From: a virus
DNA length: 64,000 bases
Strand: one strand, 5' to 3'
Virus record (IMG/VR): IMGVR_UViG_3300032313_001582
Span: 15,725 to 79,724 of that record
Shown: piece by piece, positions 14,619 through 62,903 of the stretch
Position numbering within the stretch: the stretch's first letter is position 1
Layout: every line of letters begins with the position of its first letter
Translations under genes and position numbers: made by a program
The notes under the pieces: model-generated
The model's database searches: none
Seen by the model: only the letters and a program-made list of their open reading frames with translations
What the model was told of the DNA's origin: nothing

Positions 14619-14632
14619 TTAAGTATTACATT

Positions 14633-41317: not shown

Positions 41318-41723
41318 ATTCAATCTAATACCAATAGGTAAGCCCAGAATGACGCAACGGGATAAGTGGTTAAATCCACCACGTCCCGAAATATTAAAAT
41401 ATCGTCTTTCTCGACACGCGATTCAGGATTATGCAATGATGGAAGGTTTCGTTTTAGGCGAAATTTTAGAAGGTACTTTTATATTGCCTATGCCCAAATC
41501 ATGGAGCAAAAAGAAACAAAAATTAATGGATGGTAAACCGCATTTAAATAAACCAGATTTGGATAATATTATTAAATTCGTACAAGATTCATTAAAACCA
41601 GAAGGCGACCAAATGATTCACACCATAGTGGCAAACAAAATATGGGGTGAAGAAGGTAAAATCATACTTAGACAACATGAAAAAACAACAACAGACTCAT
41701 CGACAAATACAGGCTCTATTTAG
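41307..41723 (+). CDS. rusA: RusA-family Holliday junction resolvase
   Basis: GKPR, PMPKSWSKKK, KPDLDN..K...D. Confidence 0.82.
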   Translation: MDYEFNLIPIGKPRMTQRDKWLNPPRPEILKYRLSRHAIQDYAMMEGFVLGEILEGTFILPMPKSWSKKKQKLMDGKPHLNKPDLDNIIKFVQDSLKPEGDQMIHTIVANKIWGEEGKIILRQHEKTTTDSSTNTGSI

Positions 41724-42120
41724 TGTTTTATCGGATTCACTCAATGACATAGGTGTAATTCAAACCATAAACATTATTAATAAAGGCAGAAAATCAACTC
41801 TTATGCAAAGCGATATTCATTTGACTGCTCAGGCGGTTTCTGAATGTTTTGCTATTCCAATAACAGTCCTATTTGGTAAAAGTAGAAAGTATCCCAGAAA
41901 ATATGCTTTTGCAATTTGGGTTTACATTTGCTATTCGGATTGTAATTATAGTTTAAAAGACTTGAGTGACTATTTACATTGTAGTATGTCAACAATTTCA
42001 AAAGCAAAGATTTTCATGGAAAACTATCCTGAAGACTCGGCATTTAATCAAAAAATACACGAAAAACTGGCTCAAACCAGAGAACGACTTAAACAAATCA
42101 CCACAACTAACACCTTATAA
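41677..42120 (+). CDS. DnaA C-terminal-like HTH protein
   Basis: VSECFAI...LFGKSR....YSLKDLSDYL..SMSTI pattern. Confidence 0.6.
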   Translation: MKKQQQTHRQIQALFSVLSDSLNDIGVIQTINIINKGRKSTLMQSDIHLTAQAVSECFAIPITVLFGKSRKYPRKYAFAIWVYICYSDCNYSLKDLSDYLHCSMSTISKAKIFMENYPEDSAFNQKIHEKLAQTRERLKQITTTNTL

Positions 42121-42131: not shown

Positions 42132-43187
42132 ATGGCAGACAATAATCCACCAGTAGGATTCGGAATTGAATCTCAAAACAACGAATCTTTCTCTCCTTTA
42201 ATGGAGAGCGTTAACCAAAAATCATACACTCGTCCGAACGTAGAGGTTTCGGATGCAACTCCTATTGAAGAACCTGTAATTGTTCCACCATCATTTGAGC
42301 AATTAGAAAGTGGTTTTCAAGCGAGTATGAATGAAAATGAAGTACCTGCTGACGATAGGAAAGTTTGGGGAGGAGATTCTGAACCATCGAGTGCAAATCC
42401 TTATGTAGAAAATTTGGATAAGAAAGACCAAAGAGTTGCAAGTTCAGCCATGGCTGATGCATTTATTGATGGTTATAGTCAACTAATGTCTTTTGCAAAT
42501 AAAATGATTCAGTTCAATATTTCAAAAGTTCAAAAAATGATTAGGGATGGTGAAATCGACCCTAATTTATTAATACCCGTTTCTGGAACTCCAATGACCA
42601 TATTGGAGTACATGCAGGAATTTAACAACCAGACAAAAGATGTAATTACGGTTACTGACGAGTTTAAGGATAAAGTAAGACCTGTGATGATTCGCGTGTT
42701 CATGAAGCGTAATATCGGCATGACTGACGAACAATTGCTTGGTTACTATTTTATAGTTGATATTGTTACGAAGGCGAGCATAGTATTTAGTATCAAGAGC
42801 CAGAATGCAGAGTTAATAAGGAGCATGAAGGAAATGAGTGCAGGTTATACCCAACCTCCTCAAGCGGTCAATACTCAAATAGAAAATCCAGCACCTGCTT
42901 CACAAACCCAAGAAAGAGTTTATGAAGAACCCAAGAAAGAACCTGAGCCCGTAGTGAATACACCCAAAAGGGAGTTTGTTGAACCAGAAGAAATTAAAAT
43001 GACGGAGGAATTCCAAGATGCAACTGTTGTAAATTCAGTAGTGAGCGAAGAACCAATAGTTCGTTCAAAAGCATCAGCAAAAATGCCAAAATTTGGAAAC
43101 GCATCTATTTTAAATCAAATGGAAGAAATTGCATCTAAAACCAATAATACTAAATCAACCCGTGGACGTAAGCGTAAAACATCATGA
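42132..43187 (+). CDS. Hypothetical protein coupled to the packaging ATPase
   Basis: 351 aa; ATGA overlap with the ATPase; acidic/Pro-rich ends, basic tail. Confidence 0.65.
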   Translation: MADNNPPVGFGIESQNNESFSPLMESVNQKSYTRPNVEVSDATPIEEPVIVPPSFEQLESGFQASMNENEVPADDRKVWGGDSEPSSANPYVENLDKKDQRVASSAMADAFIDGYSQLMSFANKMIQFNISKVQKMIRDGEIDPNLLIPVSGTPMTILEYMQEFNNQTKDVITVTDEFKDKVRPVMIRVFMKRNIGMTDEQLLGYYFIVDIVTKASIVFSIKSQNAELIRSMKEMSAGYTQPPQAVNTQIENPAPASQTQERVYEEPKKEPEPVVNTPKREFVEPEEIKMTEEFQDATVVNSVVSEEPIVRSKASAKMPKFGNASILNQMEEIASKTNNTKSTRGRKRKTS

Positions 43188-43996
43188 GAGAACCATTATT
43201 AGGTGTTGCCGTAGGGCGAAAAGGAGTTGGAAAATCATTTACAACCAATAAATTAATCGAGCAATACGTTGTTGGTAATTTGGCTTCTGGCATATTGCCA
43301 AGAAAAGCCTTGATTCTTGATGTAAACGATGAATACGAACACATCAAGGGAATTGCAGTAAAAGATTTGATTCGATTTTCTGTTCATCCCCATGTAGAAG
43401 CAAGAAGAATAAGACCTTTTCATCCAGATGGTAAGAAAATGCGATTGGATGATTTGGCTTCAACATTGAATCTTGTTCTTGAAACTTTTACTGGTGGATT
43501 ATTACTTATCGAAGATATTAATCGATTTGTTTCAGATATGATGCCACAAGATTTAATGGGGGCGATTGCTACGAATCGCCACAGGGATTTGGACATCATA
43601 CTGCATTACCAAGGTATTGGGCGTATAGGACCGAAAGTATGGCAGAATATTAACTGGCTTCGTTTTCATAAAATTACCGAAAGTGCCCAAAGACACCAAC
43701 GTAAATATGAAGATAAATACGAACTAATTAGGATTACTGAATTAATGGTTAATAAAGAATTTTTTCAAGGGAATGATAGATTCTATCAGTATGTTGATTG
43801 TGAGAACATGCGTTTAATGGGGCATGTAGATTTGGACAAGTTTGAGGAGGCGTGTAAGCAATATTTAGAAGAAAATTATCGCAAAACAATTACTCCATTA
43901 TTACAAATTCGTTCAGAAGGTAATAAAAAGAAGTGGACACACGAATCTGCTATGAAGCATGAATTGGAAAGATTGAAAAAAATGTATTTAAAGTAA
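43184..43996 (+). CDS. FtsK/HerA-superfamily genome-packaging ATPase (A32/P9-like)
   Basis: Walker A GRKGVGKS at the N-terminus, Walker B LLLIED, NRHRDLDIILHYQ (R-finger plus Q motif); 270 aa, no nuclease domain. Confidence 0.78.
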   Translation: MREPLLGVAVGRKGVGKSFTTNKLIEQYVVGNLASGILPRKALILDVNDEYEHIKGIAVKDLIRFSVHPHVEARRIRPFHPDGKKMRLDDLASTLNLVLETFTGGLLLIEDINRFVSDMMPQDLMGAIATNRHRDLDIILHYQGIGRIGPKVWQNINWLRFHKITESAQRHQRKYEDKYELIRITELMVNKEFFQGNDRFYQYVDCENMRLMGHVDLDKFEEACKQYLEENYRKTITPLLQIRSEGNKKKWTHESAMKHELERLKKMYLK

Positions 43997-44109
43997 ATAC
44001 ATCACAAAGCCAGTAAATACCATTACTGCACTAAGTAATTTCAAGTAAATTACTAATTTCCATTTTCATTTAAAAATTTAGGTGTAATTAATTAACTATT
44101 AATGCAAGG

Positions 44110-44117
44110 TATTTTTG
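44110..44117 (+). promoter_or_regulatory. Promoter -7 element for the capsid operon (TATTTTTG)
   Basis: TAnnTTTG in the 170-bp intergenic region, downstream of AGTAA[A/T]T repeats. Confidence 0.5.
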
Positions 44118-44167
44118 AATCACTTGCAAATCTGTATTTGTAAGGAACAGAAAAACACACCAAAAAA

Positions 44168-44290
44168 ATGGAACAACTAACTCCTATCGTTAAACAAATT
44201 GGAATTTTTGTAGTCGCTTTTTTGATTGCCAATCAAATTCAAAAGGCAATCGACAAAGCCAGAACTTCAGCACCAGAAATTAAACCTTAA
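44168..44290 (+). CDS. 40-aa membrane peptide upstream of the capsid candidate, absent from the ORF track
   Basis: MEQLTPIVKQIGIFVVAFLIANQIQKAIDKARTSAPEIKP; A-rich leader. Confidence 0.65.
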   Translation: MEQLTPIVKQIGIFVVAFLIANQIQKAIDKARTSAPEIKP

Positions 44291-44318
44291 ACCTTAAAAA
44301 ACTTAAAAACTTAATACT

Positions 44319-45011
44319 ATGAGTATTCGTAAATATCTAATGGATGCACAAGCGAACGCAAACGAAGGCTTCCTTGGTGCTGATGGCTTCTTTGACGATG
44401 GATACAATTTCACCGCCAATGATGATTTCATGGGAGCAGATGGCGACACTATGCCCGCCGCTGCGCCTACCTCTCAACCTTACATCATCCAAGTGGCTAA
44501 CACTGGCTCTGCCGTAAGTTCTTTCCAAATCTTGAACTCGTTCACGTTCATCAACAATGCTGGTTTCTCTAACGGAAGTTTGTCAATTGGTGACGTAACT
44601 ATTTCAAGTGCTATTCCAAACGTAACTTACCAACAGATGTTGTATCAGTTCATGAACAACCCTTATAGCGTAGGTTTGACGTACATCCAATCGGCTTCTC
44701 AGAACCAGTTATTGCAAACCATCAGCGTTTCTACGCAAGATGCGAATGGTAACTTGGCTCAAAAGCCGTTAGTGCCGACTATCGACCCATACCAGTTGCA
44801 GACTACCGTGTTAGCGATGCGTTATGGATACAAAATCGACGGTTTCACTGGTTTGATTCTTAATCAAATCTTGGCATCTACCACCGTAACCATCTACTTG
44901 TACCCAAGTGATAACATCAACTTGGCTCGTGGATTGGCAGGTCGTCCTGTTTCTCGTGAATACGGAAGCCCAGGAATCGTGCGTAGTCAACCCGTTAAGT
45001 TGGTAGGTTAA
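44319..45011 (+). CDS. Candidate major capsid protein (jelly-roll-like, beta-rich) with acidic N-terminal arm
   Basis: Downstream of the packaging ATPase; strong C-ending codon bias; alternating beta pattern; own terminator; fold not verified. Confidence 0.62.
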   Translation: MSIRKYLMDAQANANEGFLGADGFFDDGYNFTANDDFMGADGDTMPAAAPTSQPYIIQVANTGSAVSSFQILNSFTFINNAGFSNGSLSIGDVTISSAIPNVTYQQMLYQFMNNPYSVGLTYIQSASQNQLLQTISVSTQDANGNLAQKPLVPTIDPYQLQTTVLAMRYGYKIDGFTGLILNQILASTTVTIYLYPSDNINLARGLAGRPVSREYGSPGIVRSQPVKLVG

Positions 45012-45030
45012 TCCAATCCAATCAAACACG

Positions 45031-45067
45031 AAAAAGGGCGAGGCGAGTTTCGTCTTGCCCTTTTTTT
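45031..45067 (+). terminator. Rho-independent terminator
   Basis: AAAAAGGGCGAGGCGA-gtt-TCGTCTTGCCC-TTTTTTT. Confidence 0.9.
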
Positions 45068-45084
45068 ATTAAAACAAAAAATTA

Positions 45085-45495
45085 ATGAACATCTACGAAT
45101 ATATCGCACGCTCCAATCCTCAAGGGGCACGAATGGTAATTCAGCAATTCGGTTACAGAATTACTGACAATAAAAAAATGGGCGATAACCTTCGTATGTT
45201 GGTCGCACAGGAAGGTGAACCAGCATTAAGAGAAATTGCCAAATTACATCCAGATAGGGATTTGATTCTTGAAGTTTTTAACGAACCTAAAGAAGAAAAA
45301 CCATGTACTTGCAAGGATAAAAAGAAGGAAGAAAATTTCTATGGTGCTGATGCAACACTTTCAAGTGCAGTTTTAGCGAACAACCAACAACAAAATCAAG
45401 CATCAGATAGTACAAAACTCGCGATGCAAACAAATTCAATGCTATTTTTAGCAACAACTTTAATTGTAGTAGCATTAATCGTAAACAAAAAATAA
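45085..45495 (+). CDS. Tail-anchored membrane protein
   Basis: C-terminal TM + KK; FYGADA motif. Confidence 0.7.
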   Translation: MNIYEYIARSNPQGARMVIQQFGYRITDNKKMGDNLRMLVAQEGEPALREIAKLHPDRDLILEVFNEPKEEKPCTCKDKKKEENFYGADATLSSAVLANNQQQNQASDSTKLAMQTNSMLFLATTLIVVALIVNKK

Positions 45496-46478
45496 TGGCA
45501 CAAATACAATCCTCAAGTTTATACGCCATCACTGCGAAGACCATTGACACTCGTCCTAATGAAGTAATCGCTTTGATTCGTAAAAATGGTGTTATGATTC
45601 CCGATGGGGCTTCGTCACAGACCATTGACAAAGCATTTGCAACTTTAATCACTAAAAGCAAACCATTTCAACAACAATTTGCTCAATTGGCAACTAAAAC
45701 CGTAATTGAAGGAAACGCAACAATTTCTTTTGATGGTTCAGTTGGTCAAGATGGGGCATTTAAAAAATCAAATTTGATGTTTGATGGCTCAGTTGGTAAA
45801 GATGGGGCATTTAGAAATTCAAACCTCATGTTTGATGGTTCAGTTGGTCAAGATGGAGCATTTAAAAATTCAAGTTTGATGTTCGATGGTTCAGTTGCCA
45901 GAGATGGTGCATTTAAGAATTCAAATTTGTCATTTGATTCTTCGGTGGCTCAAGATGGTGCTTTCGATAATTCTAACTTGTCATTTCACGGTTCTTTGGC
46001 AAAAGATGGTGCGATGCCCATGAGTAATTTCAAGGACGTTTCAAACGAAGTAAACTTTGAAGGTTCATTCCCTATGAGTAGGTTTGATGACGTTTCAACT
46101 GAAGTTAATTTCTCTGGTGCAGGTATTGGAACTACAAGTTCTGCTCCAAAAGCACCAGCACCAATTACCTCTCCTTCAAAAAGTACTCCAACTTCAAGTG
46201 GTTCATCAAAAAAATCTGGTGCTGGATTCGGTTCATATTTTACCCCAGAGTTTGTTCAAAGTCTTTTAACAACAGGACTTGGAGTTTGGGCTTATAGCAA
46301 GACTGGTCAGACACCACAACAAGTTCAAAACAACTTGGAAGAAGGTAGAAATGACCCTGCATATAACCAGAACAATCCCCCACCAGCAAAGGGTTTAAGC
46401 ACTACTGGTGTAGTTTTAATTTCTTTGGGAGTTATTACTGCAATTGGTGTTGCCGTTTACTTCATGCGTAAAAAATAA
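45495..46478 (+). CDS. Tail-anchored membrane protein with 17-aa FDGSV repeats
   Basis: Six FDGSVxxDGAFxxSxLx units; C-terminal TM + RKK. Confidence 0.75.
   Translation: MAQIQSSSLYAITAKTIDTRPNEVIALIRKNGVMIPDGASSQTIDKAFATLITKSKPFQQQFAQLATKTVIEGNATISFDGSVGQDGAFKKSNLMFDGSVGKDGAFRNSNLMFDGSVGQDGAFKNSSLMFDGSVARDGAFKNSNLSFDSSVAQDGAFDNSNLSFHGSLAKDGAMPMSNFKDVSNEVNFEGSFPMSRFDDVSTEVNFSGAGIGTTSSAPKAPAPITSPSKSTPTSSGSSKKSGAGFGSYFTPEFVQSLLTTGLGVWAYSKTGQTPQQVQNNLEEGRNDPAYNQNNPPPAKGLSTTGVVLISLGVITAIGVAVYFMRKK
45729..46020 (+). repeat. 51-bp coding tandem repeat (about 6 units)
   Basis: Units start at 45729, 45780, 45831, 45882, 45933, 45984. Confidence 0.85.
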
Positions 46479-46481
46479 ACC

Positions 46482-46709
46482 ATGGAGAACCAGTTTCAAG
46501 AAGCCTTGGACAACATAAAGAAATTGAGCAATCAAGATGCTCACGATACTTTTGTTGAAAAATTTCGCACTTCGATTAAAGGAAGTGCGGTAGGCTTAGT
46601 TACTGGCTTACTTTATGGATGGTATTCCAAAAGGAATTTATATGTTACTGGTATTCTGGGTGCAATAGCAGGTGGAGCAATCAATTATTTCGTATTTCAA
46701 AGAGATTAA
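46482..46709 (+). CDS. Small Gly-zipper membrane protein
   Basis: Two GxxxG hydrophobic segments. Confidence 0.7.
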   Translation: MENQFQEALDNIKKLSNQDAHDTFVEKFRTSIKGSAVGLVTGLLYGWYSKRNLYVTGILGAIAGGAINYFVFQRD

Positions 46710-46710
46710 G

Positions 46711-47019
46711 ATGAAAGTAGTAGCATTAAAAGATTTAAACTTAGGTGGTATTGGAATCGTTGCAGTAACCAAAAAAAAGGGTGATGTATTTGAATTGTCA
46801 GATACACAACCCGTTGGTGGTAAAATACTATTTTACGATGAGTTCGGTACTGGTAAAAAACTTCCTTTAGTTTTAGGTACAGACATTAGTATCGTTGAAG
46901 AAAATAAAGATTCTGTTATGGATGAAGACTCGAAGCGTAAGAAACAGGGCAAATTAATTTTTTTAGGGGGTGCTTTATTATTAACCTATCTCGTATATAA
47001 AATCATAAAATCAAAATGA
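46711..47019 (+). CDS. Tail-anchored membrane protein
   Basis: Start MKVVAL; C-terminal TM + KIIKSK. Confidence 0.7.
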   Translation: MKVVALKDLNLGGIGIVAVTKKKGDVFELSDTQPVGGKILFYDEFGTGKKLPLVLGTDISIVEENKDSVMDEDSKRKKQGKLIFLGGALLLTYLVYKIIKSK

Positions 47020-47306
47020 AAATCTCAGCAGAATTTTGGATGGCAGGTATAGTTTTTTTGGTTGTGGGTTTAAAACTCGCAAACCATGAAGACAAAAAGC
47101 AGACGATTGTGGCTCAGAAAATGGGCGATGACTTGGATTTTATGGGTCGTGATGACTATTTTGCTGACATGGCAGGAGGGATAAACGTATTTAAGAAAGG
47201 CTCTAATATTACAAATGAAGATTTTGTTATTGGCAGAAATACACCACCACCCTCAATTACTTTACCACGAAAAGTTAGAATTACAAATAGAACTGAAGCC
47301 ATTTAA
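47016..47306 (+). CDS. N-anchored membrane protein
   Basis: N-terminal TM. Confidence 0.65.
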   Translation: MKISAEFWMAGIVFLVVGLKLANHEDKKQTIVAQKMGDDLDFMGRDDYFADMAGGINVFKKGSNITNEDFVIGRNTPPPSITLPRKVRITNRTEAI

Positions 47307-47317
47307 TCGATACAAAA

Positions 47318-47407
47318 ATGACAAAAACTCAAAAAGCACTGGCAACAATTTTTTTAGTTAGTGGCATTTTGTACTTTATGTTCAAAACGCCAAAAGATGA
47401 CAAATAA
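47318..47407 (+). CDS. 29-aa membrane peptide, absent from the ORF track
   Basis: MTKTQKALATIFLVSGILYFMFKTPKDDK; TAATG coupling. Confidence 0.6.
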   Translation: MTKTQKALATIFLVSGILYFMFKTPKDDK

Positions 47408-47913
47408 TGGAAAAAAACACTAAAACCATATTAATAGTGGGTGGGGCGGTAGCCGTTCTCTATTTGCTATTACGCAACAGGAAAGATACCACTCTCATTA
47501 TTGAAAAACAGGGAGAAACTGTGTTTGTGCCGACACCATCTGTGTCTACACAACCTGCAAGCACTTCTGTGACTACTTCTGGTAGTACTACTGGTTCTGG
47601 TACTGGTGCTTCTGTTAGTCAGAATTCTGGTGGATTAACAACAGATAATTTAATAAAAAATACAACAACCAATACTGGTGCTGGTGCTTCTACTGGTGTT
47701 TCAGTTGGTGCTGGAAAACAAGACCAATCGAGTGCAAGCATTCCATCTGGTGGAATCACTGGTGTAGATACGCCTACTGGTGGAGGTCAAGTTCAAGACT
47801 ATGCTCGTCCTATGACTGGAACTGCTGGTGGAAATGTAGTTGTTGCATTTGATGGGTTTATGTACTCATCCAATGGAAAAAAATTAACCTTGAATGATTT
47901 AATAAGAAACTGA
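47407..47913 (+). CDS. N-anchored Gly/Ser/Thr-rich membrane protein
   Basis: TM, low-complexity stalk, MTGTAGG..FDG C-terminus. Confidence 0.7.
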   Translation: MEKNTKTILIVGGAVAVLYLLLRNRKDTTLIIEKQGETVFVPTPSVSTQPASTSVTTSGSTTGSGTGASVSQNSGGLTTDNLIKNTTTNTGAGASTGVSVGAGKQDQSSASIPSGGITGVDTPTGGGQVQDYARPMTGTAGGNVVVAFDGFMYSSNGKKLTLNDLIRN

Positions 47914-48470
47914 TGGAAAAGAAATATATCATAGGTGCTGGTCTTGTAGCATTAGGCTTGTTCGCGTATAGCAGATACGCTAAGAAAGACGAATCTGGGC
48001 AACAAGAAGAACAAGGTGGTGGCGGTGGCGGTATTGGTGGTGGCGGTTTTGGAGGTGCTTTTGTAAATCCAATTACAAATCAACCAACAACACCTTCAGC
48101 CCCTTCAACTCCTGCAAAAGTTGGTATTACTCCAGTGACGATTAAAAATCCAACGATTCTGAAGAATTTAGGTGCTGGTACACCAACCGCGGCTACGACA
48201 TCATCAACTGGTGCTGGGGCACAATCTGGCGTTACGATGCCAACTGGTGGTATTAAACCAGTTGTTAGAACTGGAAGTTCAAGTACATCTTCTTCTGGTA
48301 TTGGAAATACGGGTGTTGGTGTAACTAACACTGGTAATATTTCAGGCGTAGGTTCAACCATGACTGGAACTGCTGGTGGAACTGTATTTAAACCTTTCGA
48401 TGGATGCGAGCCAAACAGAAGAAGAACTCTCTTTCTTAGTGACCTTGTAAGGTCTTGGAATAGACCATAA
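47913..48470 (+). CDS. N-anchored Gly/Ser/Thr-rich membrane protein (paralog of the upstream gene)
   Basis: Same layout and shared MTGTAGG..FDG..L.DL.R C-terminus. Confidence 0.7.
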   Translation: MEKKYIIGAGLVALGLFAYSRYAKKDESGQQEEQGGGGGGIGGGGFGGAFVNPITNQPTTPSAPSTPAKVGITPVTIKNPTILKNLGAGTPTAATTSSTGAGAQSGVTMPTGGIKPVVRTGSSSTSSSGIGNTGVGVTNTGNISGVGSTMTGTAGGTVFKPFDGCEPNRRRTLFLSDLVRSWNRP

Positions 48471-48481
48471 AAAATAACAAT

Positions 48482-48655
48482 ATGCCATACAAAGTAAAAA
48501 TTCGTAATAAGGATATTTTTGATGAAACCTTTACAACAGAAACATCCGCAAAGCAAGCGAAATATTTCGCGATAATTGGTGCAAAAAACAATAGAGGTGC
48601 TTTTCGTGTCATGGATGCAAAAATTGTAAAAGTGGCTAAAGCCAAAAAGAAATAA
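48482..48655 (+). CDS. 57-aa basic protein, absent from the ORF track
   Basis: MPYKVKIRNK...KVAKAKKK fills the gap; A-rich leader. Confidence 0.55.
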   Translation: MPYKVKIRNKDIFDETFTTETSAKQAKYFAIIGAKNNRGAFRVMDAKIVKVAKAKKK

Positions 48656-48676
48656 TCAACTTAAATTTTCAAATAT

Positions 48677-48946
48677 ATGTTAAGCGCAAACGCAATGTAC
48701 AAGCAATCGGGTTCAACCTTATCATTTAAGGACTGGCTTGAAAGAGAAAAAAACAAAGGACAATTCATACCTAACATTCAAGCACAAATGGAATTTGAAA
48801 ACGCTGATGGGTCACAAACTGCCCAAGAAGATATTAAGGGTGCTGGTCAATTAGAAATTGGCAGTATCATTGGTAAAAACCTTTTAATAACTCTTGCTAT
48901 TGTTGCTGGAGGTGTTCTAATTTATCGATATTACAAGAATAAATGA
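48677..48946 (+). CDS. Tail-anchored membrane protein
   Basis: FENADG motif; C-terminal TM + YRYYKNK. Confidence 0.7.
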   Translation: MLSANAMYKQSGSTLSFKDWLEREKNKGQFIPNIQAQMEFENADGSQTAQEDIKGAGQLEIGSIIGKNLLITLAIVAGGVLIYRYYKNK

Positions 48947-49155
48947 CGCTGACTAAAAAGCAAATAACGAATGGTTTTATTGCGTTGGGTGTAATCATGT
49001 TGATTTACGCTAACAGAGGTTCTTTGCATCCAAACAAAAAGCCTTTAAACGCAAAAGAAGATTCTGACGATGCTATTGATAGAGCCATTAGTAAATTAAA
49101 GTCGGGTGGTGTTGCCGTAAAATCAACTCCAGAAGAGGTAAAAGAGAGCGTATGA
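48943..49155 (+). CDS. N-anchored membrane protein
   Basis: N-terminal TM. Confidence 0.65.
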   Translation: MTLTKKQITNGFIALGVIMLIYANRGSLHPNKKPLNAKEDSDDAIDRAISKLKSGGVAVKSTPEEVKESV

Positions 49156-49940
49156 AGTACAGGATAACAATTGATTATGCACCGATTACCCTCAACGTCA
49201 AGGTAAAAACCGATACTCCAGAAAAACTTCATCTGGTTGTTTACGATGCGTGTTGCCCAGACATCAAATTCACAGAGAGATACAAGACTATCACTGGAGA
49301 TGAAACATTCTATGTAAGAATGCCGATTTCACCAGAGGTTGCCATCGTTGAAGTTTATGGCGACAAGACAGGTAGAGGTGTTAAAAACGCAGATGAGAAG
49401 AATTTCAAAATAGTTTCAGTGGAGAAAACCCCTTTGGAGCGTAGAATCGATATGGATGATATTGGAAATGCTCAAATTCGTTCTTTTGTTGATTTTGCAC
49501 AAAGGTTTTCATATAATGTTTCGAATCTGAAGCCAGATACTACTTACTCCAGCGATGACAATCAGTATTTTATCTTGCTGAGTGAAACCATTCGCGGAAA
49601 CAACGGACAAGAGTTAACAACTCCAGCCAGAGTAGGTCGTAACACGGGAATAATTCAAGTTTCAAAACAAGCGTTTACCAAAATGACCGTACCGATGCGT
49701 ATGGCTATTTTGTTGCACGAATTCAGTCACTTCTATTTAAACGAAAAGATTGATGATGAAATGGAAGCGGATTTGAATGGTCTTCTAATTTATCTTTCTT
49801 TGGGATACCCAAGGATTGAAGCATATCAAGCATTTTTGGAAACCTTTAAAGAAAGACCAAATAACCTGAATAAAGCCAGATACGATTTGATAAACAAATT
49901 TATCAATGATTTTGAAAAAATGAACATGGTAATCAAGTAA
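49152..49940 (+). CDS. Zinc metallopeptidase (HExxH, gluzincin-like)
   Basis: ILLHEFSH followed by EMEAD. Confidence 0.7.
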   Translation: MKYRITIDYAPITLNVKVKTDTPEKLHLVVYDACCPDIKFTERYKTITGDETFYVRMPISPEVAIVEVYGDKTGRGVKNADEKNFKIVSVEKTPLERRIDMDDIGNAQIRSFVDFAQRFSYNVSNLKPDTTYSSDDNQYFILLSETIRGNNGQELTTPARVGRNTGIIQVSKQAFTKMTVPMRMAILLHEFSHFYLNEKIDDEMEADLNGLLIYLSLGYPRIEAYQAFLETFKERPNNLNKARYDLINKFINDFEKMNMVIK

Positions 49941-50308
49941 TGGATAAAAGAATCGAAATAGCAGGAAAAGTTTTGCTCGTAGGCTCGGTTGCTTATTTGA
50001 TAGCAAAGATTTACAAACAGGTTAATGATGGTGTAGGTTTGTTTTTGTCCCAAGCAAAGATGGGTGAATATGTCATGACGAGTCAGTACGGAATGAATAA
50101 GCCAATGACTAAAGAGAAATACTATGAAATAACCAAAAATGCTGAAGGTAAAAACGTAAGTTTTGTAAATGCTTGGAAACAATTGGACAAAGAATATGCA
50201 AACGCATATTACAAAGCAGTATGGAGAGCAACCAAGGGAAAAGGTTCAGATACGTTTAAGGTGGGAGATGTTGAATATCTCACCAAGGGTGGACGGAAAA
50301 AGACTTAA
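49940..50308 (+). CDS. N-anchored membrane protein
   Basis: N-terminal TM; ends LTKGGRKKT. Confidence 0.65.
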   Translation: MDKRIEIAGKVLLVGSVAYLIAKIYKQVNDGVGLFLSQAKMGEYVMTSQYGMNKPMTKEKYYEITKNAEGKNVSFVNAWKQLDKEYANAYYKAVWRATKGKGSDTFKVGDVEYLTKGGRKKT

Positions 50309-50319
50309 CTAAGAGAAGT

Positions 50320-50478
50320 ATGACTAACAATTCCAGAAATATTGCAATAATAGTAGGCACTTTAGTAGTTGCTGGTGGACTTGCTTATTGGTTTTACAAT
50401 TATCAAGTTAAATTGTTGAATTTGAATACTTTGAGTCCAGAGTATACAAAAGAACTTGAAAACATAACGATGGAATGA
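50320..50478 (+). CDS. 52-aa membrane protein, absent from the ORF track
   Basis: MTNNSRNIAIIVGTLVVAGGLAYWFY... Confidence 0.65.
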   Translation: MTNNSRNIAIIVGTLVVAGGLAYWFYNYQVKLLNLNTLSPEYTKELENITME

Positions 50479-50479
50479 T

Positions 50480-51259
50480 ATGGCAAATTGGAAAATCAAA
50501 GTGCCACAAGGTACTTATAAATCGGACAGAACAATATCTCAAAGCATCGCTGAATTACAAAAAGCGAAAACTGCCTCTGGTAAAGAGTTAAAAGAAATTT
50601 CGGAGTTTTATAGTTTACCATTTTACTTGGTGTTTGCGGTTGCAACTTTGGAAAGTGGTGGTCAGTCGATAAGGTCTTTTGATGGCTTGTCTTATGGGGT
50701 AATGCAAACAAATGCTGAAACAATGGATGGAGTCATTAAAGAAGTTTTTAAGCAAGGAATGACTATGGGTAAATTCTATCCATTGTACTTAGATATAAAG
50801 CCATTATTCACTTTGAAAAAACCTATACCTGCAAATTTTTGGGATAATAGTAATATTGCTTTAAGACAAGAGCCAGCAAGTAATTTTTTAAGATATAAAG
50901 GTTGGGAGGCTTGGAAAAATACCAAATCTACTTACAATCAAAAAATGATGACTAATAAGCCTTTTGCAATTCGAGTTGGTGTTTTGTTTTTAAGACAATT
51001 GATAGGTGATTCATTAGAAAAAGTTGGACAAGATGTTTATTTAAGAATGGACTGGGTAATCAAAGGATATAACATGGGGTATTATTCATTGAAGTTCGGA
51101 ATTTTGAATAAGCCACAAAATAGAGCCTTGGATTCTAATGCTTTGATTATCAGACCAGATTTAATAAATCAAAGATACACGAAGCCATATATACAAAGAA
51201 TTGGAGGTATAAATGGTTACTTAGATTTAATCAAGCAGGGTAAATTTAAATTGTCATAA
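50480..51259 (+). CDS. Lytic transglycosylase (SLT-like)
   Basis: AVATLESGG (catalytic E-S), GVMQ, GYNMG (AYNxG-like). Confidence 0.78.
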   Translation: MANWKIKVPQGTYKSDRTISQSIAELQKAKTASGKELKEISEFYSLPFYLVFAVATLESGGQSIRSFDGLSYGVMQTNAETMDGVIKEVFKQGMTMGKFYPLYLDIKPLFTLKKPIPANFWDNSNIALRQEPASNFLRYKGWEAWKNTKSTYNQKMMTNKPFAIRVGVLFLRQLIGDSLEKVGQDVYLRMDWVIKGYNMGYYSLKFGILNKPQNRALDSNALIIRPDLINQRYTKPYIQRIGGINGYLDLIKQGKFKLS

Positions 51260-51282
51260 AAATTAATTAAATTTGATAGCAA

Positions 51283-51741
51283 ATGGCAGTAACAACTTGG
51301 AATACCGTACCTAATTATGACGAATGGGGAAGTGATACCTATTGGTCATGTGAAGATTGGATTCAATACCATAAATTATTAAAACAACATTTCGGTGAGG
51401 AAAGGGCAAAATACATCTGGGAATTTGCTTATGGTCAAGGAACAGATGGTGCTTCTCACTGGGATTGCCGTACATCTAATAATGCATTCAGAAAATACGC
51501 AAGTTCAGAGAAATTAAACATGTATTCCAGTGCTGGGTTGTTCTCAATCATTTTGAAACCAGTAGGCGTTGGTTTTGACATAGTGAATGACACATCTGAT
51601 GCAATCAGTGGAATATCAAGTGACATAGCGGATTTTTTTAATTCAGACAATGTAAGCCCAATTAAAGTTCTTCTTTGGGGAACAACTTTCATTGCTCTGG
51701 GTTTTGTAGGGTACAAAGCATATCAGTACACGAAAAAATGA
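51283..51741 (+). CDS. Tail-anchored membrane protein
   Basis: Trp/Cys N-domain; C-terminal TM + KK; TAAATTTG element at 51268. Confidence 0.7.
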   Translation: MAVTTWNTVPNYDEWGSDTYWSCEDWIQYHKLLKQHFGEERAKYIWEFAYGQGTDGASHWDCRTSNNAFRKYASSEKLNMYSSAGLFSIILKPVGVGFDIVNDTSDAISGISSDIADFFNSDNVSPIKVLLWGTTFIALGFVGYKAYQYTKK

Positions 51742-51932
51742 TGCCTAAAATACAAATATCGGAAAACACTCAGAAAGTCCTTTTATGGGGTTCTGTGGCT
51801 CTGCTTGTAGGTATCACTATCGTTGTGGTGAAAAACAAGAGAGATAAGAAAGTTCGCCTTGAAAATGAAAGCAAAGGTCTTCAAAAAGAATATGAAAATT
51901 TGTTAACAAGAATAGATAAAGCACCAAAATAA
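51738..51932 (+). CDS. Small N-anchored membrane protein
   Basis: Start MMPKIQ; TM then coiled coil. Confidence 0.65.
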   Translation: MMPKIQISENTQKVLLWGSVALLVGITIVVVKNKRDKKVRLENESKGLQKEYENLLTRIDKAPK

Positions 51933-52534
51933 TGAGCAATAAATGGATATATCCCGTTTTAGGTATCGGAATTGCTTCCGCTATTGTTTATGTGTTTGTA
52001 TTTAAGAAAGACAAGTCTTACGAACCACCTCCAGCACCAAATCCAGAAGATATTGACCCAGATTCTGGTTTGACTTATGCTCAAGCAACTATTGACCCTA
52101 CAATATTGATTTACTTGCAACCATCTCAAAATCAACAAAACGCGAGTAATATCTATGAATCTGGTCCAGCAAAAGGAAAAAGGATTTTTACTAACAACAG
52201 AATTAAGGGCAAAAAAATATCCACCAAAGTTGATGCCGTAAAATTACGCTCTTATGCTCATGTAAATAATGGGTTTATTAATAATATCGTTGCAGAAGTA
52301 GGACAAGACGTTGTTTTGGGGGATGCACAATTCGTAACGAGTGAAGTTGATTTAATTAATGGGGCAAAAGGAATTACCATGAATCCAAAGACAAAAGAAC
52401 CATATAAGTGGGTAAATATTACTCTGTCCGATTCGACAACTGATTTAATAAACAAAGGTAAAAGTTGGTATCAACCAGATTTGCCAAAAGGCAAAACAGT
52501 GTATGCAAGGGAGGACACTATAAAAATCGTTTAA
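51932..52534 (+). CDS. N-anchored protein with SH3b-like domain
   Basis: TM, Pro linker, VKLRS...WVNI...YAREDTI pattern. Confidence 0.55.
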   Translation: MSNKWIYPVLGIGIASAIVYVFVFKKDKSYEPPPAPNPEDIDPDSGLTYAQATIDPTILIYLQPSQNQQNASNIYESGPAKGKRIFTNNRIKGKKISTKVDAVKLRSYAHVNNGFINNIVAEVGQDVVLGDAQFVTSEVDLINGAKGITMNPKTKEPYKWVNITLSDSTTDLINKGKSWYQPDLPKGKTVYAREDTIKIV

Positions 52535-52535
52535 A

Positions 52536-53096
52536 ATGAAAAAGTTAACTGATATAAAACTGACTCAGAACCAAAAGTACGCTTTATACTTTGGTGGTGC
52601 AGTAGTAGGTACATACATAATTATTCAAATCATCAAAGCCATTCAAAAAGGTGGCGATAAAGGTGAAAATAAAGGTGCAGGTATTAAGACACAAGTTGTC
52701 TTTACCGATAAGTATTTGTCTGGTCTTCCTTTGGGGGTAGATAATTTGACATGGGCTTCTAAAGTTCCCACAAAGTATTTACCAAGTTTTGATGCAATAG
52801 GATTATCAAAAACAGATTCTGTTTTTAAAGCAAAAGCCGAAAGAATTCAAAAACTTTTGAATCAAAGGATGGAGGCATCTTATGATGGTTATCCAGCGTT
52901 AGTAGTTGATGGACAAATTGGTGCAGAAACTACAAAAGCCATGATTAAAATTGCCAAAGACTATGGCAAACTCGATGAACTTGTACCTCTTAAAACCAAA
53001 GATGACCTTGAAAAATGGGCAGTCTTTTTTGGTATTAAAAATGATTCCACAACAAATGAAGAAACAAATCCTTTCCCTTGGATGGGCTTAAAATAA
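52536..53096 (+). CDS. N-anchored protein with peptidoglycan-binding domain
   Basis: IQKLLN...VDGQIGAETTKAM (PG_binding_1-like). Confidence 0.65.
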   Translation: MKKLTDIKLTQNQKYALYFGGAVVGTYIIIQIIKAIQKGGDKGENKGAGIKTQVVFTDKYLSGLPLGVDNLTWASKVPTKYLPSFDAIGLSKTDSVFKAKAERIQKLLNQRMEASYDGYPALVVDGQIGAETTKAMIKIAKDYGKLDELVPLKTKDDLEKWAVFFGIKNDSTTNEETNPFPWMGLK

Positions 53097-53102
53097 AAAG
53101 AA

Positions 53103-53669
53103 ATGGAAATTGATATTTTTTACACAAACGATGATATGAGTTTTGGCTTTGATGGCAAAGAAAATAAGTTTGCTTCAAAAGTCCAAGGTGGATTTTGCGA
53201 TACCGATTATTCGTATTTAAGTGGTGGTTTTCCAGCAAGCGGATTTGATACCACATCAGACAATGTGAATGCACTTGGTCGCGAAGCCCAAGTCGAAAGT
53301 TGGTTTTCTTTGGATGAAAAAGAAAAAACTAATTGTGCGATTTTGGAAAGCAAAATTGAAGGTCTTAAAAAGGCAATCAAAGAAAATCAAACTAAACTTT
53401 TAACTGTAAAAGGTGGAGAGAAAAGAGTCACCGAAGACTATTTGAATCTTTACCAACGCAGATTAAATTTTTTCGAAGGATTGTATGCTGACGCGAAATG
53501 TGAAGAAAGTAAAATCGCAGAAGAAGAATCAAAACTTCAAGGGTTGTTATCTCAATTAACTTCTGGGGAAGAAAAAGACAAAATGGGTAAAATCGTTCTT
53601 ATTGGCGGAGTTGCCGTTGTTTTGGGAGTAATAGGTTTAATCATTTATAAAAAAAGTAAAGCATCATGA
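53103..53669 (+). CDS. Tail-anchored coiled-coil protein
   Basis: FGFDG N-terminus, helical body, C-terminal TM + KKSK. Confidence 0.7.
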   Translation: MEIDIFYTNDDMSFGFDGKENKFASKVQGGFCDTDYSYLSGGFPASGFDTTSDNVNALGREAQVESWFSLDEKEKTNCAILESKIEGLKKAIKENQTKLLTVKGGEKRVTEDYLNLYQRRLNFFEGLYADAKCEESKIAEEESKLQGLLSQLTSGEEKDKMGKIVLIGGVAVVLGVIGLIIYKKSKAS

Positions 53670-54607
53670 ACATAAATAATCAATTAGGATTGGCAACGCA
53701 TCCAATTCCTGTTTACAATAAAAGTATTGACCAACAACTTGGATTTATCGGTACGGATGGTCAGGGTATCATGTTTAATGCCGATGGTGGCGAGTATTGG
53801 GCTTCAAAGGCAACACCTAACTATTCAGATGATAATCTAATTATGTTAAACGAGGATAGCACATTCTTAAACGCAGGTGGTCAAGATGGTAATTGGCGTA
53901 ATGATAGAAGATATTATGTTGGCGATGAAAGTAGTGTTGATTTTGAGTTAGACACTCTCCGCATCAGAGATAAATCAACGGGTAAAATTATTACTAACGA
54001 TTTGAAATATGTCCAATCTAAAATTGAAAAATACGCATTAGAATCCGATAATTTGAAAAATAGGTTGGAAGGAACAGAATTAGATGTCACGACAACTCAG
54101 TATACTACTAATTCACAAAAGAATCAAAACCGAGCGCTTGCAAACCAACAAAAATGGGTTAAAGATAGACTCGTAAGCAGATTAAGGGATATTTTAAAAG
54201 ATTTGGAAATTGCTCAAGAAAAAGCCTTAGCGTTAAAAGCCAAAGCGGATTCAGATGCAAAAATTAAAGCAGACAATGATGCGTTTGCAAAAGCAAAATC
54301 TTCAAATACAATAGTTGCTTACACTGAATATTTGAAGAACTTTCCCGAAGGTTTGTCAGTAGACAAGGCAAATAAATCTATTGATGACATCAGAAAAGCC
54401 GAAAAAATCAAGGCTCTGGAAAATCAAAAAGCCAATGCTACTCCCGAAGAGAAAAAGCGTATTGACGCTGAAATAGATGCAATTTTGGGTGTTGATTCAG
54501 GAACTACGGGTACTGTGGCAACCAGAATGTTTCTTTACGGAGGAATTGCTTTGGTAGCGGTGTATGGTCTTTACAAAGTATTTAAAGGAAACTCCGCTTC
54601 AGCCTAA
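53666..54607 (+). CDS. Tail-anchored coiled-coil protein
   Basis: FNADGG/FLNAGG N-terminus, long helix, C-terminal TM. Confidence 0.7.
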   Translation: MNINNQLGLATHPIPVYNKSIDQQLGFIGTDGQGIMFNADGGEYWASKATPNYSDDNLIMLNEDSTFLNAGGQDGNWRNDRRYYVGDESSVDFELDTLRIRDKSTGKIITNDLKYVQSKIEKYALESDNLKNRLEGTELDVTTTQYTTNSQKNQNRALANQQKWVKDRLVSRLRDILKDLEIAQEKALALKAKADSDAKIKADNDAFAKAKSSNTIVAYTEYLKNFPEGLSVDKANKSIDDIRKAEKIKALENQKANATPEEKKRIDAEIDAILGVDSGTTGTVATRMFLYGGIALVAVYGLYKVFKGNSASA

Positions 54608-54867
54608 TGGAAAACTTTGATTCCTTTTTTCAAGACACAAACTTTGATACCGACAGGATTCAAGGTGATTTAAACAATGCTGAATTGTTCGGAGATAAGT
54701 TTGCTGAAACTTTTTCTCCAGAAGCCTCTGTAAACTTGGAAGAAGCAAAAAAAAGAATTGAAAGACTTAATGCAAAACCAGAAGTAATAACGGGTGTTCC
54801 AAACGCCTTGCTTTATTATGGAGTGATTGCCTTGGGTATTTATGGAATCTATAAAATTTTGTCATAA
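54607..54867 (+). CDS. Tail-anchored membrane protein
   Basis: C-terminal TM. Confidence 0.65.
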   Translation: MENFDSFFQDTNFDTDRIQGDLNNAELFGDKFAETFSPEASVNLEEAKKRIERLNAKPEVITGVPNALLYYGVIALGIYGIYKILS

Positions 54868-55370
54868 TGAACGCAAAAAAAGTTTTACTCGTAACTGGTG
54901 CTTCGCTATTTGCAGTTGCTCTGGGACGATATGTCTATCGTAATATCCTATTGGCTAACAAGTGGGATTTCTTTTATAAGGGATTTGAAATTAATCAAAT
55001 TTATCCAAGCCCAATAGTTACAACGATTATTGAATTTAAAAACGTGAGTGACTTGACGGTAACAATCAAGGATATTGATATTGCAGTATTCACGGAAGAT
55101 GTACAAATAGGAAAAGTTTTTCAGCCAGATACAATTACAATTGCTCCAAATGGTTCTACAAATGTTAAATTTAAGTTAGAATTTAGTGCAGGTAATGCCA
55201 TTAAGGGATGGAGTACTTTGATTGCTAATGCATTGCAAAAGAAAGATTTACCTATGGACTTCATAGGTACATTTAAAACGAAGACTTTATTCGGATTTTT
55301 GAGCGTTCCAGTAAGATATTCTACAAGTGGCAAAAACTTGTATCAACTCTGGAAAACTTACTATGGATAA
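54867..55370 (+). CDS. LEA_2/WHy-like membrane-anchored protein
   Basis: N-terminal TM; EFKNVSDLTVTIKDID..IG....TIAPNG pattern. Confidence 0.65.
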   Translation: MNAKKVLLVTGASLFAVALGRYVYRNILLANKWDFFYKGFEINQIYPSPIVTTIIEFKNVSDLTVTIKDIDIAVFTEDVQIGKVFQPDTITIAPNGSTNVKFKLEFSAGNAIKGWSTLIANALQKKDLPMDFIGTFKTKTLFGFLSVPVRYSTSGKNLYQLWKTYYG

Positions 55371-55402: not shown

Positions 55403-55810
55403 ATGTTACAAGAAATGTTCGGTACAAAAATCGCCAATGACTTTCTGAAAGGGATTCAGCGATTTGCACACGCTCTGGAAACGGATGATGAAAAAGTACA
55501 AATTAGATTGACTTTGACTCAAAATGAAAACCAACCCATAGTTTATGAGTTGGTAAAAGAATGGAGAGTCATAAAGGAAACTGATTTTAAAGAAGTTATG
55601 GGAATAAAAATGGACCTCCTTAACCAAGAGGGAATGATAACACCCGTAATTATTCAAATGATGGTTTTCCATGGTCAAAACTTATCGATAACGATGGAGG
55701 CTCTCTCTGCATACCTTTTCAAAAAAGGAAATCAAGTTGGGGTTGCCATATATGATGGTTCTAATTGTTCTAAAGTTTGTCCAATTCAAGAGATGCTAAA
55801 AATGGAATAA
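55403..55810 (+). CDS. Hypothetical protein
   Basis: 135 aa ORF after a promoter element. Confidence 0.6.
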   Translation: MLQEMFGTKIANDFLKGIQRFAHALETDDEKVQIRLTLTQNENQPIVYELVKEWRVIKETDFKEVMGIKMDLLNQEGMITPVIIQMMVFHGQNLSITMEALSAYLFKKGNQVGVAIYDGSNCSKVCPIQEMLKME

Positions 55811-55825
55811 AAAAAAACTTAAACG

Positions 55826-58557: not shown

Positions 58558-58558
58558 G

Positions 58559-60688: not shown

Positions 60689-60697
60689 CATACCGCG

Positions 60698-62902: not shown

Positions 62903-62903
62903 A

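Follow-up and report, generated by a model that had tools for sequence, protein, structure and literature searches.

What kind of particle does a virus build when its late genes comprise a small packaging-type ATPase, a beta-rich protein and a long row of membrane proteins? The locus in question occupies positions 42132–55370 of the window, by which we mean the whole 64,000-nucleotide stretch analysed, and comes from an uncultured lake-water virus known from an incomplete contig of 79.7 kb (CheckV 94%). We consider it likely that these genes make up the late morphogenesis operon of a large dsDNA virus of freshwater bacteria, probably Bacteroidota, with a tailless icosahedral particle in which a protein shell would cover an internal lipid membrane; the virus is known from its genes alone. 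Our literature search found no publication on this virus group. Module synteny is kept in relatives whose ATPase is 46–76% identical; two of these relatives, G1 and G6, are used below for comparison.

The packaging ATPase and the genes upstream of it are arranged as follows:

40670–41317, + strand: PAP2-family (lipid) phosphatase (Pfam PAP2, E 3.9e-10; identity 54% in G1, 41% in G6)
41307–41723, + strand: RusA-type Holliday-junction resolvase (Pfam RusA, E 5.8e-12), two genes upstream of the packaging ATPase
41647–42120, + strand: small helix-turn-helix protein (weak Pfam Bac_DnaA_C, E 0.0015; 49% identity in G1; start codon uncertain)
42132–43187, + strand: conserved protein of 351 aa, the last 4 nt of its gene overlapping the start of the ATPase gene (in syntenic position in G1 and G6, at 44% and 29%)
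43184–43996, + strand: stand-alone FtsK/HerA-superfamily P-loop ATPase of 270 aa, a B204/A32-like candidate genome-packaging motor

The earlier note, made from the sequence alone, had recognised FtsK/HerA packaging motifs in the ATPase, and they are indeed present: GRKGVGKS at residues 11–18, LLLIED at 106–111, NRH at 131–133 and Q143. Across 30 homologues, the Walker A and Walker B motifs, NRH and Q143 vary little or not at all. Searched with Foldseek, the AlphaFold model (pLDDT 89.6) retrieves STIV2/STIV B204 at the top (E 7e-10), ahead of Zot (4e-6) and HerA (3e-5). VIA agrees, aligning B204 with a Z score of 18.3 (187 of 204 residues, rmsd 2.8, 19% identity) against 16.8 for HerA, a margin of only 1.5 Z units. 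B204, the structural match that the note had anticipated, thus ranks first, before Zot, HerA and VirB4. For B204 itself, a role as packaging NTPase in a membrane-containing virus is proven. At the sequence level, Pfam finds a weak DUF87/HerA match (E 1.8e-4), and a comparison with B204 and PRD1 P9 found no match.

Like the B204 of STIV and STIV2 (Turriviridae) and the P9/A32-like ATPases of viruses of the PRD1-adenovirus lineage, the protein is small and stands alone; it lacks the additional domains seen in HerA or VirB4, and its gene neighbours the coat-type gene. It is longer, at 270 aa versus about 204–227 aa, and its model has an extra helical part at the C-terminus (residues ~217–268). 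Compared with STIV, the virus has a bacterial host and a genome 5 times larger. In translation, the coupled 351-aa protein is acidic at its N-terminus and ends in a basic tail; it has no match in Pfam or PHROGs and, by its position, is a candidate packaging or assembly accessory factor. RusA could resolve branched or concatemeric DNA ahead of packaging, and the PAP2 phosphatase may act in membrane lipid handling.

Downstream lies the coat-type unit:

44168–44290, + strand: single-pass membrane peptide of 40 aa, with one hydrophobic segment
44319–45011, + strand: single-jelly-roll protein of 230 aa, candidate for the major capsid protein
45035–45067, + strand: intrinsic-terminator-like hairpin and T-run, 24 nt past the stop of the coat-type gene

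All three elements had been pointed out before, the middle one as a beta-rich gene with high-expression codons. It is the clear codon-bias outlier of the window: its fraction of C-ending pyrimidine codons is 0.68, for a median of 0.31 and a next-highest value of 0.40, and its GC3 is 0.48 versus 0.31. Homologues are abundant in metagenomes (more than 1323, forming 572 clusters at 50% identity). With 61% identity to its G6 counterpart, versus 46% for the ATPase, it is the best-conserved protein of the structural module against that relative. A peptide of the 40-aa type sits directly 5' of the coat-type gene in G1, G6, L003 and L005, so that the two form a conserved unit. Contigs from RNA libraries of four studies cover the 230-aa gene; in two studies they start at 44163 and span the 40-aa peptide, and in three they end at 45022–45036, by the terminator, which is a weak hint only.

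The jelly roll predicted for this gene is borne out by its model (pLDDT 86): a helix (residues 1–16) and an acidic leader with two F-x-G-A-D-G motifs (17–49) precede an eight-stranded jelly-roll core (~50–215). Its structural matches are generic and mixed, including plant and animal RNA-virus capsids, carbohydrate-binding modules, TNF-like proteins and PRD1-type pentons, the best with a Z score of 6.7, under the tool's noise guide of about 8. Without a specific structural relative, membership of the PRD1-type lineages and kinship with the capsid proteins of PRD1, PM2 and SH1 are unproven. The fold also turns up in fibres, lectins and chaperones. Whereas the canonical 230-aa protein is found throughout the lineage, extra jelly-roll paralogues are scattered and variable: small, penton-sized ones of 149 aa in G1 and 165–178 aa in G6, and a tandem double version in G6.

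The remainder of the module is rich in membrane proteins:

45085–46478, + strand: two tail-anchored membrane proteins of 136 and 327 aa (C-terminal hydrophobic segments)
46482–49155, + strand: eight small ORFs of 57–185 aa, mostly single-pass membrane proteins
49152–49940, + strand: soluble HExxH protein of 262 aa, candidate zinc metallopeptidase (maturation protease?)
49940–50478, + strand: two small single-pass membrane proteins of 122 and 52 aa (hydrophobic segments)
50480–51259, + strand: SLT-type lytic transglycosylase (for its own sequence, Pfam SLT E 0.11, across the region of the catalytic Glu)
51283–54867, + strand: seven single-pass membrane proteins of 85–313 aa (F-x-x-DG motifs in several; partial conservation in G1 and G6)
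54867–55370, + strand: LEA_2 beta-sandwich protein, N-terminally anchored (Pfam LEA_2 E 1.9e-8; hydrophobic segment; conserved in G1 and G6)
55403–56572, + strand: two soluble conserved proteins of 135 and 248 aa (56% identity in G1)

Between 44168 and 55370, 17 ORFs reach a Kyte-Doolittle mean of at least 1.6 over 19 residues, and the translations of three further ones (46482, 47913 and 48943) contain shorter hydrophobic stretches; the previous estimate of about 20 single-TM proteins was therefore fair. The 136-aa tail-anchored protein is conserved in G1 and G6, and the 327-aa protein carries tandem FDGSV-x-x-DGAF repeats. The eight small ORFs are candidate virion membrane proteins. In the HExxH protein, which has 1270 homologues (identity 67% in G1, 52% in G6), the residues H189, E190, H193, E203, E205 and D207 are invariant across 25 homologues; leads to a peptidase family are weak (Pfam PhageMetallopep, E 0.12; Atlas DUF4344/M48, at most 0.86). 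The lytic transglycosylase, also noticed earlier, scores weakly by itself, but the orthologues from two relatives exceed the curated SLT threshold of 21.3 bits, with 27.4 and 45.9 bits (E 2.7e-6 in G1, 5e-12 in G6). Downstream, Pfam yields only a weak BppL_N match (E 0.027) for the two soluble proteins, the longer of which (248 aa) may be a spike or receptor-binding protein.

We now propose how these parts could work together. The 230-aa protein would be the major shell protein, produced abundantly from its own short transcript along with the 40-aa membrane peptide, and some 20 single-pass proteins would populate the virus membrane. The B204/A32-like ATPase would then pump a linear genome into the preformed membrane-lined shell at one vertex, probably assisted by the coupled 351-aa protein and small membrane proteins, after RusA may have cleared branched DNA. 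The HExxH protein may trim proteins sharing an F/Y-x-N/G-A-D/N-G motif, while the SLT enzyme would open peptidoglycan at entry or exit.

This layout has a close counterpart in the late operon of PRD1 (Tectiviridae), where an assembly protein, the packaging ATPase, a tiny membrane protein, the major capsid protein, small membrane proteins and a transglycosylase follow in the same order; the 42-aa P20 of PRD1 occupies the position of our 40-aa peptide. The relative G1/G2 appears to be linear, with inverted repeats at its ends seen in two independent assemblies, probably a further likeness to the linear PRD1 genome with its inverted terminal repeats. PRD1 differs in having a genome of 14.9 kb rather than about 85 kb, a 395-aa double-jelly-roll P3 rather than a 230-aa single jelly roll, and a protein-primed polymerase, for which PF03175 finds no match here or in two relatives rated 100% complete by CheckV. 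Unlike PRD1, the virus also encodes polyvalent proteins (ART, Zeta-toxin), huge collagen-like proteins and a glycan gene cluster with many glycosyltransferases. Halopanivirales (Helvetiavirae; P23-77, SH1 and HHIV-2-type) combine single-jelly-roll major capsid proteins with an A32-like ATPase and an internal membrane. They have two different single-jelly-roll capsid proteins side by side and genomes of 16–31 kb, in contrast to the one canonical protein here, and structural searches with our jelly roll gave no specific match to theirs. To our knowledge, no membrane-containing dsDNA phage has been described whose shell is made of just one type of single-jelly-roll protein.

The earlier inference of a much larger bacterial virus of the tailless membrane type is supported, with the genome at about 85 kb and the two complete relatives at 84.7 and 102 kb. 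The size range of 10–30 kb then given for known members was too low, as the tailless membrane phage SSIP-1 (Salisaeta icosahedral phage 1) has 43.8 kb; measured against this largest cultured one compared, the virus is about twice the size, and not three to eight times that of the largest known. SSIP-1, reportedly tailless, membrane-containing and with a Bacteroidetes-related host, shares with this lineage one very large structural protein gene. It is circular with 57% GC, as opposed to probably linear with about 35%, and neither profiles of the ATPase, jelly-roll and HExxH families nor BLASTP of all ORFs detected similarity to it.

Could the particle instead follow a plan unlike that of PRD1, for instance enveloped, pleomorphic or otherwise novel? 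In that case the jelly roll would coat the nucleoid or serve as a matrix or surface protein, with the membrane proteins residing in an outer envelope. The jelly roll without specific relatives, the single abundant jelly-roll type in the window and the collagen-like, glycosyltransferase and polyvalent genes, which suggest a complex particle, would all suit such a plan. We nevertheless hold it to be unlikely: stand-alone B204/A32-type ATPases are a known feature of viruses whose DNA enters an icosahedral shell formed beforehand, the gene order is that of PRD1, and relatives possess penton-sized paralogues.

A tailed phage with HK97-fold capsid, portal, terminase and tail genes that have diverged too far for detection or lie off the contig, the ATPase and jelly roll serving elsewhere (decoration, fibre head), is less probable still. 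The contig is incomplete, large ORFs of 794, 1273 and 1828 aa without assigned domains could conceal unrecognised structural parts, and the ATPase weakly matches phrog_2666 'terminase large subunit' (E 1.4e-4). PHROGs 'tail fiber' families also match a collagen-repeat protein, but cover only the collagen repeat. Against this, the lack of terminase, portal, HK97 capsid and tail genes noticed at the outset was upheld: Pfam and PHROGs identified no terminase, portal, HK97 capsid, tail-tube or sheath family among the large ORFs, and PF03237, PF05065 and PF04860 gave no match when run against all six frames of the entire contig. The two complete relatives show no match at E ≤1 to Terminase_6N, Phage_portal or Phage_capsid, and a scan of all their ORFs of at least 300 aa returned no head or tail match except collagen repeats. 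Moreover, the most expressed-looking gene encodes a jelly roll and not an HK97 fold. We regard a conjugative or other mobile element as very improbable. In it, the ATPase would drive secretion or transfer, as its structural matches to VirB4, TrwB and Zot might suggest, and the membrane proteins would form a transfer channel. Polyvalent ART and Zeta-toxin proteins do occur on conjugative elements, and a transglycosylase with many membrane proteins fits a type IV system. However, the large ORFs of the contig and of the complete relatives yielded neither a relaxase nor a coupling protein nor a full-length VirB4, the 270-aa ATPase is nearest to B204, and so biased and conserved a jelly-roll gene is atypical of conjugation systems; the genomes of 85–102 kb, probably linear with defined ends, are classed as viral by IMG/VR and CheckV.

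Returning to the tailless membrane virus, several features point to a bacterial host: SLT, RusA, RecT and DNA methylases, overlapping operon genes, and terminator-like sites, which number 24 versus 9 expected. Since a Shine-Dalgarno-like site precedes just 2 of 60 genes, the host is probably a member of the Bacteroidota, as had been suspected; leaders contain 49% A.

The earlier note's observation of a morphogenesis module in the window is confirmed, and the module is syntenic across the window's own contig and two relatives in IMG/VR, G001 and G006. The genes of the window are nearly all on the plus strand, and in many of them the stop codon overlaps the next start; GC content is about 35%, and no tRNA was found in the window. 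PAP2, RusA and a small HTH protein are encoded upstream of the ATPase. The layout of the module is the same as the annotated order of PRD1, which runs P10 assembly, P9 ATPase, gpi, P20, P3 capsid, P22, small membrane proteins and P7 transglycosylase. Its main elements, in window positions, are:

43184-43996, P-loop ATPase, 270 aa, candidate packaging motor
44110-44117, TAnnTTTG copy upstream of the coat unit, candidate promoter box
44168-44290, membrane peptide, 40 aa
44319-45011, coat-type jelly-roll protein, 230 aa, candidate major capsid protein
44319-44470, leader of the coat-type gene with two motif copies
45035-45067, terminator-like hairpin 3' of the coat-type gene
45495-46478, tail-anchored repeat protein, 327 aa
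44168-55370, stretch with single-pass membrane proteins

The promoter box is only a candidate, since the window has no excess of TAnnTTTG, the Bacteroidota -7 box (83 copies against 87 expected).

The ATPase is a small stand-alone protein without extra domains, and it has 686 metagenomic homologues. Across 30 of these, Walker A (G11...GK17S/T) and Walker B (LLLIED, with E110 and D111) are invariant, as are T130-N131-x-H133, Q143 and R147. The FtsK/HerA-type P-loop fold, both Walker motifs and the conserved polar sensor residue are all present. The earlier note had expected a fold of the B204 type, and this was borne out: with an AlphaFold model (pLDDT 89.6), the packaging NTPase B204 of STIV2/STIV comes first in Foldseek (E 7e-10 to 1e-7), followed by the Zot (4e-6) and HerA (3e-5) families, and it is also the best match in the VIA structural alignment (Z 18.3 over 187 residues, rmsd 2.8). 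VIA places HerA (16.8), DndH (16.6) and VirB4 (15.6) behind it, the gap between B204 and HerA being small; the 11 highest matches are all FtsK/HerA-superfamily ATPases (Z 12.5-18.3). On the motifs, the model and these two sets of matches, the protein is by its predicted structure a member of the FtsK/HerA superfamily whose nearest relative among solved structures is B204, a viral packaging enzyme that is likewise small and stand-alone.

Sequence searches gave weak matches to DUF87/HerA in Pfam (E 1.8e-4) and to a PHROGs family labelled terminase (E 1.4e-4). Against PDB sequences, protein and profile yielded noise apart from a P-loop match to ClpB; tblastn brought up no genuine match in 50,697 phage records, and hhalign of the profile against PRD1 P9 gave nothing. 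The ATPase gene stands beside the coat-type gene in the window and in G001, and the two are less than 3 kb apart in G006. There, a 175-aa ORF between them (57595-58122) is by eye an NlpC/P60- or CHAP-like candidate cell-wall hydrolase.

For the coat-type gene, the fold stood as the earlier note had predicted, but kinship with known capsids is not proven by the generic matches obtained. In the model (pLDDT 86), an N-terminal helix (residues 3-16) is followed by an acidic leader that is disordered (17-49), and residues from about 50 to 215 form a jelly roll of eight strands. Foldseek returned generic jelly rolls only, at E of about 1e-3 to 1e-4: capsids of picornaviruses and comoviruses, TNF/C1q, and giant-virus C1q domains linked to collagen. 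In VIA the best Z is 6.7; the penton P31 of PR772/PRD1, capsid proteins of FLiP, PBCV-1 and EhV, PM2 P1 and STIV A223 score 4.8-6.2, and these matches are interspersed with RNA-virus capsids and carbohydrate-binding modules. Halopanivirales capsid proteins (P23-77 and SH1 type) are absent from the best 50 VIA rows, an absence that is compatible with kinship. Pfam, PHROGs and PDB sequences offer no match to the protein; searches with protein and profile against PDB sequences gave noise only, tblastn against the 50,697 phage records no real match, and hhalign against PRD1 P31 nothing. An ESM Atlas lead to the T6SS protein Hcp (0.87, under the reliable range) was rejected because PF05638 had no match at E <=10 and the structural searches returned no Hcp.

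Several features lead us to read this protein as a candidate for the major shell protein. Its gene is the codon-usage outlier of the window, with a fraction of C-ending pyrimidine codons of 0.68 against a median of 0.31, and the terminator-like hairpin follows it. Between the window and the distant relative G006 it is 61% identical, above the ATPase (46%), and even in G006 its immediate upstream neighbour is the gene for the 40-aa membrane peptide, though other genes part the peptide gene from the ATPase there. Contigs assembled from RNA libraries of four separate studies span 44163-45036, that is, the peptide gene plus the coat-type gene, and those of three studies stop at 45022-45036, beside the hairpin; such contigs cannot rank expression, and this coverage is a hint only. 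The ATPase and a 351-aa gene lie outside the RNA-library contigs compared, an absence that carries no evidence. The coat-type family comprises more than 1323 proteins in 572 clusters at 50% identity, and contigs carrying its members reach 92-99 kb.

The relatives encode further copies of the jelly roll. G001 has a second, penton-sized one of 149 aa (70618-71067, E 4e-6). G006 has the canonical coat-type gene, three small copies and a 397-aa protein in which two full jelly-roll domains stand in tandem; penton-sized paralogues in G006 have 165-178 aa (E 1e-13 to 1e-25). The family members of G006 are at these positions:

G006, 6650-7165, jelly-roll family gene
G006, 14615-15106, jelly-roll family gene
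G006, 17384-18406, jelly-roll family gene
G006, 59233-59922, jelly-roll family gene
G006, 97322-97660, jelly-roll family gene

PRD1-type viruses use small jelly rolls as pentons, and by this analogy the small paralogues, as candidate pentons, would fit a PRD1-type reading. No penton-sized paralogue was found on the window's contig, which is itself truncated.

Downstream of the ATPase, a strict hydropathy test recognises one membrane segment in each of 17 ORFs, with three further ORFs at the borderline; 17-20 predicted single-pass proteins in a late operon are consistent with an internal virus membrane with its own proteins. A 262-aa protein is highly conserved; the HExxH motif is invariant, and so are three acidic residues downstream of it. 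It is a candidate metallopeptidase with weak ties to named families: ESM Atlas leads to DUF4344/M48 peptidases are all below 0.9, and protein and profile gave noise only against PDB sequences. A 259-aa protein matches the Pfam SLT model (PF01464) around the catalytic Glu under the cut-off (E 0.11), and its orthologues in G001 and G006 reach 27.4 and 45.9 bits against a cut-off of 21.3; by orthology we assign it as a predicted SLT transglycosylase.

A short motif is shared across the block. The module contains 17 copies of F-x(0-3)-D-G against 3.0 +/- 1.8 in shuffles, or 4.64 per 1000 residues against 1.35 elsewhere in the window. Membrane-protein genes up to 54607 show an enrichment of F-x-x-DG motifs, and the conserved HExxH protein is encoded in the same block. 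The coat-type leader keeps two [FY]-x-[NSG]-A-[DN]-G copies across 85 family members, just before the jelly roll, which begins at a conserved TSQPY. The shared motif may be regarded as a candidate processing or docking signal. The tail-anchored protein of 327 aa carries about six tandem 17-residue repeats (N-L-M-F-D-G-S-V-G-x-D-G-A-F-x-N-S) with the FDG motif.

The window's contig (79,724 bp, of which the window is 15725-79724; CheckV 94% complete) has no terminal repeats and stops inside a collagen-like gene; we therefore take it as truncated. In G001 (84,705 bp) and G002 (84,420 bp) the same virus was recovered from two samples; each of them has a completeness rating of 100%, as does G006 (102,228 bp). 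The ends of G002 are exact 127-nt inverted copies (1-127 and 84294-84420), 127 nt being, we infer, the assembler's word size. In G001 the left end is 362 nt longer and the right end stops 50 nt into the inverted copy (1-489 and 84655-84705). These inverted copies, at nearly the same ends in two independent assemblies, suggest that the genome is linear and that its inverted terminal repeat, at least 489 nt long, was collapsed in assembly.

A tailed phage would carry an HK97-fold capsid, a portal and a large terminase, the markers of Caudoviricetes. Six-frame searches of the window's contig, G001 and G006 gave no match at E <=1 to PF03237 (terminase), PF04860 (portal) or PF05065 (HK97 capsid). 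Pfam and PHROGs searches on the large ORFs of the window's contig and G001 found no terminase, portal or HK97 capsid either, although very divergent forms could escape them. Tectiviridae are defined by a linear genome of about 15 kb, a protein-primed family B polymerase and a double-jelly-roll capsid protein; this lineage falls outside that definition, with 80-102 kb, no match to the polymerase model PF03175 at E <=1 in six-frame searches of the same three genomes, and a single-jelly-roll coat candidate. Varidnaviria-type viruses have a major capsid protein with a vertical jelly roll, double or single; the coat-type model shows a jelly roll, with structural matches that are generic (best Z 6.7). 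Of known systems, PRD1 comes nearest in layout, and B204 is the nearest counterpart of a single part. In size and presumed morphology the nearest known virus is Salisaeta icosahedral phage 1 (SSIP-1, 43.8 kb); profiles and BLASTP found no similarity between SSIP-1 and this lineage.

With the ATPase and the jelly roll as predicted and the tailed-phage models without a match, the earlier note's interpretation as a tailless, membrane-lined virus is supported. We consider it probable, with a candidate coat protein for which the searches found no specific structural relative. Tailless membrane-lined bacterial viruses are commonly thought small; the largest cultured one compared here has 43.8 kb. 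Prokaryotic double-jelly-roll virus genomes in a metagenomic census span 7-18 kb (PMC5894146). A wider picture, which we put forward tentatively and hold to be somewhat doubtful, would be a deep new lineage of bacterial viruses combining a PRD1/STIV-type motor, an internal membrane and a new single-jelly-roll shell family, grown to 85-130 kb and to a complexity like that of large eukaryotic viruses, with packaged multi-domain proteins, collagen-like fibres with a virus-encoded glycan pathway, and a motif-directed maturation protease.

If true, tailless membrane-lined bacterial viruses would reach 85-130 kb, and a major group of lake phages would have escaped notice, as tools search by the markers of tailed phages. 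The coat-type proteins would then offer a new capsid family for the study of jelly-roll shell scaling and the single-to-double transition. As the family includes a natural tandem fusion, one lineage could show the origin of double-jelly-roll capsids from single ones. No publication on this virus group was found in the full-text literature, in which most subscription journals are not covered.

The peptidoglycan enzymes, together with RusA and RecT, indicate a bacterial host, as judged from gene content. Shine-Dalgarno-like words precede 2 of 60 genes (background 9%), and leaders are 49% A; near-absence of such sites with A-rich leaders is a pattern linked to Bacteroidota. The host search in genomes returned only two short coat-type contigs (L030 and L031, 69% identity), in MAGs labelled Bathyarchaeia and Planktophila; these placements are probably binning errors and no host evidence. 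Metagenomes of eight further studies, the possible source sample excluded, contain at least 70% of sampled words of the window, seven being labelled freshwater and one marine plankton. Given these and the many coat-type clusters, the lineage is widespread.

Many glycosyltransferases, FkbM methyltransferases and a DegT-type aminotransferase fragment adjoin collagen-repeat genes:

Window, 1-9708 and 56497-64000, glycan and collagen-repeat genes
L001 (the window's own contig), 1-16200, glycan and collagen-repeat genes
G001, 52323-68339, glycan and collagen-repeat genes

This arrangement suggests glycosylated particle fibres, as in some giant viruses; in G001 a single collagen-like ORF has 5338 aa. 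G001 also encodes RecT and a PD-(D/E)XK exonuclease. Six very large ORFs (870-1828 aa) occupy 10609-36931 of the window, some with ART-PolyVal, Zeta-toxin, GNAT and DUF5661 domains, which are typical of the 'polyvalent' proteins of phages and conjugative elements. At 18833-21696, the gene for a MoxR-type AAA+ ATPase (455 aa) precedes that for a 498-aa protein that matches DUF7192 weakly; the two are kept in G006 (49% and 33% identity) and may form an assembly chaperone pair. A basic protein of 101 aa (37776-38081) belongs to the most strongly conserved in this genome (74% identity in G001, 64% in G006); its sole match, to DUF5754, is weak. Finally, two adjoining N6/N4 DNA methyltransferases lie upstream of the window on the minus strand (L001 642-3262), in a leftward, early-looking block.
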